Virus record (IMG/VR): IMGVR_UViG_2698536618_000022
Span: 1 to 12,119 of that record
From: a virus
Taxonomy: Duplodnaviria > Heunggongvirae > Uroviricota > Caudoviricetes
Length of the DNA stretch: 12,119 nt
Reading direction: 5' to 3' (one strand)
The notes beneath the pieces were generated by a model that was given only the letters and a program-made list of their open reading frames with translations, was not told the DNA's origin and did no database searches. Both the position numbers and the translations under genes were made by a program. Shown here in pieces: positions 6,339 to 9,546 of the stretch (positions are counted from its first letter, which is position 1; each line of letters opens with the position of its first letter).

Positions 6339-6457
6339 TTCCTGCGATACCATGGAAGGTTGATAGCTGATTTCATCGCTTTATTTGCTTCAAGCCACAT
6401 TTTGGAATCACCAATAAATCTGGCTATTACTGCTTTGTTCTGTGCTGCACGAAGCAT
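6335..6457 (-). CDS. kil: Kil-like host-killing/cell-division inhibitor peptide (40 aa)
   Basis: MLRAAQNKAVIARFIGDSKMWLEANKAMKSAINLPWYRRK; the FIGD-x-KM motif resembles lambda Kil as I recall it; sits immediately downstream of cIII as in lambda and P22. Confidence 0.5.
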   Translation of the reverse strand: MLRAAQNKAVIARFIGDSKMWLEANKAMKSAINLPWYRRK

Positions 6458-6471
6458 CTGGTGATTGATGG

Positions 6472-6606
6472 CTATTTCATTGCGCATAACGCCTCCAGTT
6501 GTTTCTTTGCTGCTCTGATTAATTGTTTAACTCGGCGTGATAATTCAGATTCGTGCGGGTAGAAAGCGGACATGACGCCGCTACCCGCGAGCTGAAAGTG
6601 CATCAT
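6472..6606 (-). CDS. cIII: CIII-like regulator (FtsH/HflB inhibitor that stabilises CII)
   Basis: start taken at MMHFQLAGSGVMSAFYPHESELSRRVKQLIRAAKKQLEAL with AAGGAG SD 6 nt upstream; this aligns with the lambda CIII core as I recall it (...IAGWPVAGCPSESLLERITRKLRDGWKRL). Confidence 0.7.
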   Translation of the reverse strand: MMHFQLAGSGVMSAFYPHESELSRRVKQLIRAAKKQLEALCAMK

Positions 6607-6681
6607 GGGTAACTCCTTATATTTGATTGCATAACGAAAATGCCTCTCGTGAAGCATTATTGGTATGCGGTAAAGCCGCGC

Positions 6682-7050
6682 TCAGGCGGCTTTGATAGTC
6701 ATATCATCTGAATCAAATATTCCAGATGTGTCGATATCGGTAATTCTTATTCCTTCGCTACCATCCATTGGAGGCCATCCTTCCTGACCATTTCCATCAT
6801 TCCAGTCGAACTCACACACAACACCATATGCATTTAAGTCGCTTGAAATTGCTATAAGCAGAGCATGTTGCGCTAGCATGATTAATACAGCATTTAATAC
6901 AGAGCCGTGTTTTTTGAGTCTGTATTCAGAGTCTGACCAGAAATTATTAATCTGGTGAAGTTTTTCCTCTGTCATTACGTCATGGTCGATTTCAATTTCT
7001 ATTGATGCTTTCCAGTCGTAATCAATGATGTATTTTTTGATGTTTGACAT
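6682..7050 (-). CDS. hypothetical protein (122 aa)
   Basis: ATG with GAGGA SD; preceded on its transcript by a strong intrinsic terminator. Confidence 0.6.
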   Translation of the reverse strand: MSNIKKYIIDYDWKASIEIEIDHDVMTEEKLHQINNFWSDSEYRLKKHGSVLNAVLIMLAQHALLIAISSDLNAYGVVCEFDWNDGNGQEGWPPMDGSEGIRITDIDTSGIFDSDDMTIKAA

Positions 7051-7068
7051 CTGTTCATATCCTCATAG

Positions 7069-7098
7069 ATAAAAAATTGCCCTCACATCGGAGGGCAA
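7069..7098 (-). terminator. rho-independent terminator (minus strand)
   Basis: minus-strand hairpin TTGCCCTC-CGATGT-GAGGGCAA followed by TTTTTTAT. Confidence 0.65.
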
Positions 7099-7243
7099 AG
7101 AAGATTTCCAATAATCAGAACAAGTCGGCTCCTGTTTAGTTACGAGCGACATTGCTCACATAGCAGACTCGTAAATCTGCTATAGGCGCTTATTCGCACC
7201 GCATGACAACATCAAATTTTTCGAGATTACTTTGTCGCAACAA

Positions 7244-7348
7244 TCACTCTTCTACGCGGTCAGCTTTTCTATAATTATCAAATTCGAAATGTTTAATTAC
7301 TTCTTTCGTTTCTCGCTCTATAACTTCAACGATGTATTTCTTATTCAT
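7244..7348 (-). CDS. hypothetical small protein (34 aa)
   Basis: ATG overlaps the stop of the upstream Ead-like gene (TAATG); MNKKYIVEVIERETKEVIKHFEFDNYRKADRVEE; no independent SD, coupling only. Confidence 0.3.
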   Translation of the reverse strand: MNKKYIVEVIERETKEVIKHFEFDNYRKADRVEE

Positions 7349-7644
7349 TACTCATCACCTATGGCTTTTTTGATAGCTTCGAGAGCCTTATTAACAGCTC
7401 CATACCATTCTGGATATGTTGTCGTTGTTCTATTTTTGGATTGCTTAAGTAATAACTGAAGTGCTTCGAGAAGGTCAGGTGCTGCCGCTATTAGATTGGC
7501 ATCTTCAATACATTGAACTTCCTCACAGATTGCAATATACGAACGCCAGCCTGCGCCATTTTCAAGTGAGTCTGCCTGGATGATTTTAATCTCATTGCCA
7601 TCCATCATTATTTCCCACTTACCTTCAGTACCTTTAAATTCCAT
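7348..7644 (-). CDS. small Ead/Ea22-motif protein, paralog A (98 aa)
   Basis: contains IAAAPDLLEALQ and KALEAIKKAIG motifs shared with the ORF at 8285-8545 and with the Ea22-like N-terminal domain; SD AGAGG inside a repeated 30-bp linker. Confidence 0.65.
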   Translation of the reverse strand: MEFKGTEGKWEIMMDGNEIKIIQADSLENGAGWRSYIAICEEVQCIEDANLIAAAPDLLEALQLLLKQSKNRTTTTYPEWYGAVNKALEAIKKAIGDE

Positions 7645-7649
7645 GTTAG

Positions 7650-7679
7650 CCTCTGTTGTTTATGCCAAAAATAAAGGCC
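7650..7679. repeat. 30-bp direct repeat DR2, copy 1 (cctctgttgtttatgccaaaaataaaggcc); second copy at 8551-8580
   Basis: identical 30-mer read directly at both sites, each immediately upstream of an Ead-like paralog and adjoining a terminator-like hairpin. Confidence 0.85.
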
Positions 7680-7683
7680 ACCA

Positions 7684-7884
7684 TCAGGCAGCCTTGTTAT
7701 TCTGTTTACCAAGTTCTCTGGCAATCATTGCCGTCGTTCGCATTGCCCATTTATCGACATATTTCCCATCCTCCATTACAGGAAACATTTCTTCAGGCTT
7801 AACCATGCATTCCGATTGCAGCTTGCATCCATTGCATCGTTTGAATTGTCCACACCATTGATTTGTATCAATAGTCGTAGTCAT
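7684..7884 (-). CDS. ral: Ral-like restriction-alleviation protein (66 aa)
   Basis: MTTTIDTNQWCGQFKRCNGCKLQSECMVKPEEMFPVMEDGKYVDKW... matches my memory of lambda Ral, including length 66 aa; Cys cluster; AGGA SD. Confidence 0.7.
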   Translation of the reverse strand: MTTTIDTNQWCGQFKRCNGCKLQSECMVKPEEMFPVMEDGKYVDKWAMRTTAMIARELGKQNNKAA

Positions 7885-7954
7885 ACGGATAATCCTGGTA
7901 TTGTTCCATCACATCCTGCGGATGCTCTTCGAACTCTTCAAATTCTTCTTCCAT
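7868..7954 (-). CDS. small acidic ORF (28 aa), positional equivalent of lambda orf28
   Basis: ATG with GAGGTG SD 4 nt upstream inside a repeated linker; MEEEFEEFEEHPQDVMEQYQDYPYDYDY; 3' end overlaps the ral start. Confidence 0.4.
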   Translation of the reverse strand: MEEEFEEFEEHPQDVMEQYQDYPYDYDY

Positions 7955-8284: not shown

Positions 8285-8545
8285 TCAATCGTAATAATCT
8301 TCACCAATAGCTTTGCTAATTGCTGACAGTGCTTTCGATACTTCATCAGGATAATGGTCATTCCAGCTTTGCTTGTATGCCTTGTTTAGCATCGCTTGCA
8401 GAGCTTCAAGCAAATCAGGAGCTGCCTCCATCAATCTCAAATCACCACGATGTATGGTTGTATCGTCAAACGTGACATAAACACCATCATCGTTGAATCC
8501 AGTGCCAACAACACTCCACGGCCTTTTCATTCTTTCTACGGTCAT
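8285..8545 (-). CDS. small Ead/Ea22-motif protein, paralog B (86 aa from the ATG at 8545; the track ORF starts at a GTG at 8551)
   Basis: shares MEAAPDLLEALQ and KALSAISKAIG motifs with paralog A; preceded by DR2 copy 2. Confidence 0.6.
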   Translation of the reverse strand: MTVERMKRPWSVVGTGFNDDGVYVTFDDTTIHRGDLRLMEAAPDLLEALQAMLNKAYKQSWNDHYPDEVSKALSAISKAIGEDYYD

Positions 8546-8550
8546 ATCCA

Positions 8551-8580
8551 CCTCTGTTGTTTATGCCAAAAATAAAGGCC
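8551..8580. repeat. 30-bp direct repeat DR2, copy 2
   Basis: identical to 7650-7679; followed by the minus-strand hairpin GGCCGC-ATAA-TCGGCC with a T-rich tail (terminator-like). Confidence 0.85.
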
Positions 8581-8931: not shown

Positions 8932-9214
8932 TGCCTAATTTCATTTTCTGGCGACCAACACAAGTCACACCCATTTCACTGCGTGGCTTGCGGTAGTAAA
9001 TACGGTTCTGTTTACTCTCGACTTCTTCTGCCTTCTTACAGCGAAGGCTTCCGAGTGATGCTGCTTTATCTGCTCTGACGCAACCAGAGAGCTTTAGCGC
9101 AATTTTTCGCGCCAGTCGCTGCTCTTGCATTGCCTGTTCACGTTGAGCCTGTCTGCGTGCTCTGCGGCGATTTCTGGCGTTATCGTCAGCCAGATATGTA
9201 ATGACTACTGTCAT
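8915..9214 (-). CDS. N: N-type transcription antitermination protein (phage-21-like N)
   Basis: 99 aa from MTVVITYLADDNARNRRRARRQAQ (arginine-rich motif); C-terminus ...RIYYRKPRSEMGVTCVGRQKMKLGSKPLI resembles the lambda/phi21 N C-termini as I recall them; GGAGG SD; nutL lies upstream on the same transcript. Confidence 0.85.
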   Translation of the reverse strand: MTVVITYLADDNARNRRRARRQAQREQAMQEQRLARKIALKLSGCVRADKAASLGSLRCKKAEEVESKQNRIYYRKPRSEMGVTCVGRQKMKLGSKPLI

Positions 9215-9254: not shown

Positions 9255-9374
9255 TTATTTGTTTTTGCGTTGCCACATCCAGTCATCTACTTCAGACCAG
9301 ATAGTGAAACCGAAGCCGATGGCGAATGTGTTAACTAAACCACCGAGAATTGGGTTGGTCATGATGTCTAACAT
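9255..9374 (-). CDS. small hydrophobic ORF (39 aa) in the N leader
   Basis: ATG preceded by TGAGGA SD at about 7 nt; MLDIMTNPILGGLVNTFAIGFGFTIWSEVDDWMWQRKNK has one predicted TM segment; not in the ORF track (under 60 aa). Confidence 0.4.
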   Translation of the reverse strand: MLDIMTNPILGGLVNTFAIGFGFTIWSEVDDWMWQRKNK

Positions 9375-9546
9375 TTTCTGTTCCTCAGATGATTAGCTTT
9401 GGTGGTGTGGTAGGTGGGAGACCCATTTCGACCCGCTTCGTCCGACTTCAATTCGGCAATAGTCCCGCAGGCCTCGCCGCTTTACGTGCGACATATTCCC
9501 GTCCATGAACCCTTCACCACACCCCAAAGCCAACTACTCTTTGGTT

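Follow-up and report, generated by a model that had tools for sequence, protein, structure and literature searches.

Among the described elements, a small RNA of phage lambda, LPR1, since renamed PreS, is closest to the locus analysed here. It is encoded between ral and ea10 and has the terminator tL2a as its 3′ end (Silverman et al., 10.1101/2024.10.31.621285). According to the accessible part of this preprint, PreS is an Hfq-dependent sRNA that is enriched on Hfq and appears on northern blots as a species of about 88 nt and a processed form of about 68 nt. It belongs to the lytic cycle only; absent from lysogens, it is seen within 10 min of induction, similar to the pL transcripts. PreS pairs just upstream of E. 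coli dnaN and opens the ribosome-binding site, so that dnaN translation goes up, and alaS is repressed; pairing with both targets was proven by compensatory mutations. The lambda seed was defined by an 18-nt deletion (lpr1-delta-seed, primers P970/P971), and prophages with the seed deleted show less DNA replication and a lower release of phage. The question of promoter versus processing for the 5′ end is not addressed in the accessible part of the preprint, and its conservation survey used a 92% identity cut-off (10.1101/2024.10.31.621285).

The window, a stretch of 12,119 nt from a Caudoviricetes record (IMGVR_UViG_2698536618_000022), contains, on the minus strand, the leftward early (pL) operon of a mosaic lambdoid prophage. 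On this strand lie a cI-type repressor (10403-9753), an N-like antiterminator (9286-8915), ral (7884-7684) and a cIII-like gene (6657-6472); a nutL-like boxA/boxB accompanies the N-like gene. After ral follow a 98-aa ORF, a 34-aa ORF, the PreS region, the 122-aa ea10 and the cIII-like gene. The place of PreS thus matches that in lambda, in the pL operon, on the same strand and between ral and ea10, with two extra ORFs after ral.

Several further features were observed in the operon, all on the minus strand. About 100 nt between the nutL-like site and the N-like gene are enclosed by a long-range duplex of about 19 bp (9385-9540; GCUUUGGGGUGUGGUG... with ...CACCUACCACACCACCAAAGC; z = -2.6), which presumably resembles lambda's RNase III-sensitive N-leader structure. 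A 39-aa hydrophobic ORF (MLDIMTNPILGGLVNTFAIGFGFTIWSEVDDWMWQRKNK; 9255-9374) lies just upstream of the N-like gene and overlaps its listed start; the ATG at 9214, with GGAGG ahead of it, is probably where N really starts. Two more terminator-like hairpins were found: one (6639-6658) immediately precedes cIII, the other (7674-7695) overlaps the end of ral and has its counterpart where lambda ral ends. The ORFs at 7348-7644 and 8285-8551 are paralogues within one operon and belong to the unknown-function family phrog_1273; the copy between ral and PreS is absent from lambda.

The minus-strand stretch 7157-7070 is most probably (probability roughly 0.87) the PreS/LPR1 of this prophage, an Hfq-dependent trans-acting sRNA inside the N-controlled leftward early operon. 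This assignment is based on sequence comparison with lambda. The orthologue comprises 88 nt, with the 5′ G at 7157 and the 3′ end after the U-tract, and 85 of the 88 nt are identical to lambda LPR1/PreS (lambda 34011-33924). Two of the three differences are located in the terminator loop (positions 69 and 70), the other at the stem base (position 80, U.G to U-A). The ends were taken from the primers for lpr1 cloning and in vitro transcription (P810/P1103/P1104, Table S5), which define the lambda RNA as GAGCAATGTCGCTCG...GGGCGATTTTTTA (10.1101/2024.10.31.621285). In the alignment with lambda, near-identity extends from 7157 into ea10, and the sequences diverge upstream of 7157. Most of the matches in 399 phage records likewise begin exactly at this base; mEp043 and mEp213 match just 7260-7071, as far as the terminator end. 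The small RNA ending at this terminator, which the initial annotation had put forward as one option, is therewith borne out by an element already described in lambda (bioRxiv 10.1101/2024.10.31.621285). Sequence identity, synteny, structure, covariation and complementarity were computed for the window copy; the expression and function data are those of lambda, and by analogy the window copy would behave as lambda PreS does.

An Rfam search of the whole window at E<=1 gave no match in the PreS region and a single spurious snoRNA match elsewhere. PreS is without an Rfam family, and the RefSeq and GenBank records show nothing at its site. A reading of the raw sequence without tools can find a genuine phage regulatory RNA that annotation pipelines leave unmarked. 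Since the element is present in 2228 of 5426 complete E. coli genomes (about 41%), with up to 6 copies, its annotation would be useful. HnrS, a 66-nt multicopy sRNA of EHEC prophages considered as a possible alias of PreS, was rejected, as it is unrelated and encoded among late genes.

The 3′ end is formed by an intrinsic terminator homologous to lambda tL2a (7071-7098, minus strand), the presumed Hfq-binding 3′ module. As the initial annotation had recognised, it is of canonical type: an 8-bp stem with five G-C pairs and a 6-nt loop (7098-7077) is followed by T6 (7076-7071). With a folding energy of -13.2 kcal/mol and z = -4.45, none of 200 shuffles was as good, and the same scan also detects the lambda counterpart. 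Similar to lambda, hairpin and U-tract occupy the homologous position in the pL operon (tL2 cluster); the loop reads CGAUGU in the window and CAGUGU in lambda, and the window stem is longer by one Watson-Crick pair. By analogy, unmodified polymerase would presumably stop here, and with N present the modified polymerase should read through. Outside the RNA follows ea10 as its downstream neighbour (DUF2528, 122 aa; Pfam PF10800, 1.8e-47; 6682-7064 including the SD, minus strand; lambda ea10 at 33536-33904). The annotation had assigned this gene an SD of its own, and GAGGA at 7064-7060 indeed precedes the ATG at 7050.

Within the RNA body, the 18-nt seed UGUUCUGAUUAUUGGAAA (7105-7122, minus strand) is identical to the 18 nt deleted in lambda lpr1-delta-seed. 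The M1 and M2 triplets of the lambda seed are present in the window (7122-7105), and the seed core GUUCUGRUUA is kept in every homologue type seen. Two stem-loops precede it on the same strand. SL1 (GAGC-AAUGUC-GCUC, 4 bp, 7144-7157) is nearly invariant, with GGUGC/GCACC in one diverged homologue. The 3′ arm of SL2 (AACAGG-AGCCGA-CUUGUU, 6 bp, 7119-7136) overlaps the start of the seed; in five of its six pairs both partners have changed among homologues (e.g. AACGAG/CUCGUU and AACAGG/CCUGUU). In the minimum-energy fold of the full 88 nt, positions 1-6 pair with 35-40 in place of SL1 and SL2.

Comparison across relatives, which the initial annotation had suggested as a check, gave a nearly invariant body and covariation in support of SL2 and of the upstream hairpin. 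Positions 1-66 of the E. coli type hardly change across IMG/VR loci, and in 120 of these the body is almost invariant while the terminator loop, the tail and both neighbour genes vary. Nucleotide diversity amounts to 0.006 at PreS 20-66 compared to 0.029 at third-codon positions of ea10, a comparison that is biased by the collection of the loci with an exact PreS 19-mer and confounded by a linkage gradient, diversity in the first 60 nt of ea10 being zero as well.

Upstream of the body, the annotation had noted a local hairpin at about 7161-7182. It is real and larger than described: HP0 (UAUAGCAGAUU-UACG-AGUCUGCUAUG) comprises 11 bp (7159-7184, minus strand), ends 2 nt before the PreS 5′ end and folds with -12.4 kcal/mol (z = -5.47). 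A hairpin of 9-12 bp that ends 2 nt before GAGCAAU is found in 235 of 236 related loci. The stems fall into at least five unrelated sequences, in which the apical AUU/AGU is conserved and G.U pairs are retained; inside a single allele, one compensatory change from A-U to U-A occurs. In a covariance-model alignment of 62 hits, 98.4% of the cells pair, compared to 30-46% with slid partners, and both partners are changed in 15 of 21 pairs (9 of 11 for HP0, 5 of 6 for SL2); this alignment was fitted to the structure and so leans towards it, and the per-sequence fold table agrees. MAFFT with RNAalifold on 117 unique sequences put the unrelated stems out of register and so did not recover HP0; the hairpin was assessed by the per-sequence pair table and the covariance-model alignment instead. 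If PreS is released by processing, HP0 would mark or protect the 5′ cut or insulate the folding of PreS.

In seven loci, a second HP0 with an SL1-like GAGCAATATYGCATAAC was observed about 270 nt ahead of the main PreS homologue, followed by an ORF and no PreS body (L131:322-397, L136:7737-7832, L138:6523-6598, L202:6831-6926, L217:6924-6999, L230:5740-5815 and L236:7898-7973). Since these copies precede an ORF, the HP0-SL1 unit also occurs alone at another gene junction. The 'boundary sequence' bsq5 of CUS-3 was considered as a form of HP0 and rejected, as it is the cI-N intergenic region.

Further upstream, the description of about 145 nt as non-coding holds in part. No credible gene lies between hairpin and terminator, but 7243-7190 once coded for the C-terminal tail of a 52-aa ORF (phrog_6949). 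The 34-aa ORF at 7348-7244 matches positions 1-34 of this phage family; codon 35 is TGA in the window and GGA in relatives, and the 52 aa are intact in all six relatives (APC_JM3.2 and five from IMG/VR). The tail was therefore recently inactivated, and the inactivated 3′ part (7190-7246, minus strand) extends from the premature TGA (7246-7244) to the ancestral TAA (7192-7190). This TGA stems either from a recent nonsense mutation or from an error of sequencing. The true intergenic space, 7189-7051, begins with a weak 5-bp hairpin around the old stop, after which come HP0, PreS and the ea10 SD. The small hairpin (GGUGC-GAAUAA-GCGCC, 7185-7200, minus strand) holds the ancestral stop codon of the 52-aa ORF and folds with -7.8 kcal/mol (z = -1.97, weak); its GAATAAGC motif recurs in relatives.

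The comparison set consisted of 240 loci from two exact-word scans of IMG/VR. Downstream of PreS these loci carry ea10, directly the cIII leader hairpin, or several other genes; about 40 of them lack ea10 and have the cIII-leader hairpin directly after PreS. Free reassortment among the loci is seen for HP0 alleles, body types and terminator types. A diverged PreS homologue of about 100 nt was found at the same operon position in P22, ST64T, ES18, ST104 and SEN22. It shares the HP0-SL1-SL2-seed-terminator layout and the GUUCUGRUUA core, whereas its antisense-dnaA stretch is 13 nt longer and its terminators are different. With 84-88% identity over the 5′ part, these homologues fall below the cut-off of the preprint's survey. 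A third, more diverged PreS-like RNA was observed on one contig (L235:1501-1584, minus strand), at a distance of about 4.5 kb from the main copy; its HP0 differs, its SL1 reads GGUGC/GCACC, its seed core is GUUCUGAUUAA and its terminator is of the P22 type.

The seed and its 3′ continuation (7096-7122, minus strand; PreS 36-62) are complementary to the last dnaA codons, which form the dnaN translation-initiation region. The reverse complement of the stretch is CAAAGAAGATTTCCAATAATCAGAACA and equals AAAGAAGATTT..AATCAGAACA of dnaA; the dnaA 3′ end in Escherichia, Klebsiella and Enterobacter reads ...CAAAGAAGATTT(T/C)TC(A/T/C)AATTTAATCAGAACA... Against dnaA 3′ ends (L123/L249-L274), 27 of 27 positions match with 4 gapped bases. 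The local alignment score of 35-37 compares with 17.4 +/- 2.3 in dinucleotide shuffles and was reached by none of 2000. In the predicted interaction, UGUUCUGAUUA pairs with UAAUCAGAACA upstream of dnaN and AAAUCUUCUUUG with CAAAGAAGAUUU. The predicted duplex of the seed region with Escherichia dnaA-dnaN junctions amounts to about -32 kcal/mol; the seed region alone was used, as RNAduplex over-extends the pairing on the full 88 nt. Escherichia, Klebsiella and Enterobacter share this target. An Escherichia-specific site was considered and rejected, since Klebsiella and Enterobacter carry the same target and use TGA as the stop; a genome-contig scan had left out these two, and probably Salmonella, because its pattern required a TAA stop. 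The Salmonella-type RNA aligns to dnaA over 45 nt, through GTCATCGT at the dnaA stop.

Such complementarity reaches well beyond an ordinary seed and suggests that the PreS body is a captured, inverted fragment of host dnaA, although it may also be a product of selection for pairing. A broader reading would make the functional unit larger and older than the 88-nt RNA, composed of an HP0 release cassette and a body captured and inverted from the dnaA 3′ end. We put this forward tentatively and would sooner bet against it than for it. If true, HP0 would sit in a conserved release cassette that fixes the 5′ cut of the pL transcript, shields the upstream message or insulates PreS folding, and the captured dnaA body would now exist in several host-range variants, namely an E. 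coli type, a P22/ES18 type and two or more others. The accessible preprint text mentions neither HP0 nor the diverged homologues nor the antisense-dnaA signature; some of this may already be in print. HP0, the Salmonella-phage homologues and the antisense-dnaA signature offer handles on the making and the origin of PreS, which the preprint leaves open.

Other explanations of the region were weighed against the sRNA. The initial annotation had also proposed a promoter or operator that gives ea10-cIII-kil partial independence of N. A control region of this kind in 7158-7243, serving these genes or the sRNA, would fit the gene-free stretch and the inverted repeat just upstream of the transcript 5′ end, and a promoter is not excluded in the accessible part of the preprint (10.1101/2024.10.31.621285). 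The annotation's own remark that no convincing sigma70 pair can be found proved correct, however: no -35/-10 hexamers with a spacing of 16-18 nt are present on the minus strand within 6400-7900 or in lambda within 33800-34400. The would-be -10/-35 bases lie in HP0, where relatives carry entirely different sequences, at least five unrelated ones at -2 to -27. What is kept across these alleles is the pairing, including G.U, and not the sequence, a pattern that is the signature of an RNA rather than of a protein-binding site. A transcript starting in 7158-7243 would moreover meet the terminator before ea10. The lambda RNA accumulates only after induction, with the timing of the pL transcripts (10.1101/2024.10.31.621285), and the window possesses the N-like gene and nutL-like site. 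We regard N-independent transcription from this region as highly improbable. It is also very unlikely, in our estimation, that the locus holds only an intra-operon terminator, tL2a, which enforces the N dependence of ea10-cIII-kil and is preceded by functionless spacer, even though hairpin and U-tract are canonical and the description of tL2a as a terminator is far older than that of the sRNA (reference 47 in 10.1101/2024.10.31.621285, as cited there). Conservation is far higher in the 66 nt that precede the terminator loop than in the terminator, and these 66 nt persist when either neighbour gene is swapped; the seed is identical to the mutationally validated lambda seed, and at least three unrelated terminators occur on the same body among homologues.

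Pairing without sequence conservation also bears on the view that HP0 and SL1 mainly form a module boundary at which lambdoid phages recombine, the hairpin being incidental to PreS function. A pure recombination site should conserve sequence and not pairing, whereas 9 of 11 HP0 pairs are compensatory and an A-U to U-A exchange took place within a single allele. The free reassortment of HP0 alleles, body types and terminator types speaks for this view, and so does the second HP0+SL1′ copy before an ORF in seven Salmonella-type loci, which is as expected of a recombined-in cassette. As the main role of the hairpin, a boundary is unlikely; as a recombination junction, HP0 and SL1 are compatible with the PreS reading, and the two roles may coexist. 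Next to no weight is given to a small protein. The annotation had seen no ORF with a credible start, and an ATG-initiated ORF of 29 aa does exist (7152-7063, minus strand). Its credibility is poor all the same: it has no SD, the ATG lies 5 nt after a stable hairpin and is ATA in the homologues of P22, ST64T, ES18, ST104 and SEN22, and the terminator-loop indels of relatives would shift the frame.

For PreS as the preferred reading, the following course of events can be proposed. After induction, pL transcription would pass through the PreS region, and the tL2a-type hairpin with its U-tract (7098-7071) would set the 3′ end of the RNA, by termination, trimming or both, the same module serving as the Hfq binding site. 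The 5′ end lies directly after HP0 (7184-7159), for which endonucleolytic processing of the operon transcript appears most likely, over a promoter of its own. We infer processing because no promoter-like sequence was found in the window or in lambda, because the would-be promoter bases sit in HP0, where the sequence is not conserved, and because the lambda RNA follows the timing of pL. As far as can be read from the sequence, neither PreS junction resembles an RNase E site of the textbook type. A second cut about 20 nt further in would remove SL1 and leave a form of about 68 nt with SL2, seed and terminator. The seed (7122-7105), and onward to 7096, would then pair with the last dnaA codons just upstream of the dnaN start and open the dnaN ribosome-binding site, potentially resulting in more sliding clamp and favouring phage DNA replication; other targets such as alaS would be repressed. 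The genes ea10-cIII-kil would stay N-dependent, because the same hairpin terminates polymerase that is unmodified by N.

The window copy and lambda PreS thus share their 5′ start (GAGCAAUG...), terminator type, strand and 18-nt seed, and both are located in the pL operon immediately before ea10. The two loci differ in the upstream hairpin, whose stem sequence in lambda is wholly unlike that of the window, and in their spacing: about 75 nt separate ral and PreS in lambda, whereas the window carries the two extra ORFs here (98 aa, and 52 aa cut to 34 aa).

DicF of the Qin prophage, among other sRNAs cut from operon transcripts, is a further prophage sRNA that is released from a polycistronic transcript, as PreS would be, depends on Hfq and acts on essential host genes. 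The sequences of DicF and PreS are unrelated, and their effects differ: DicF represses ftsZ, whereas PreS activates dnaN.
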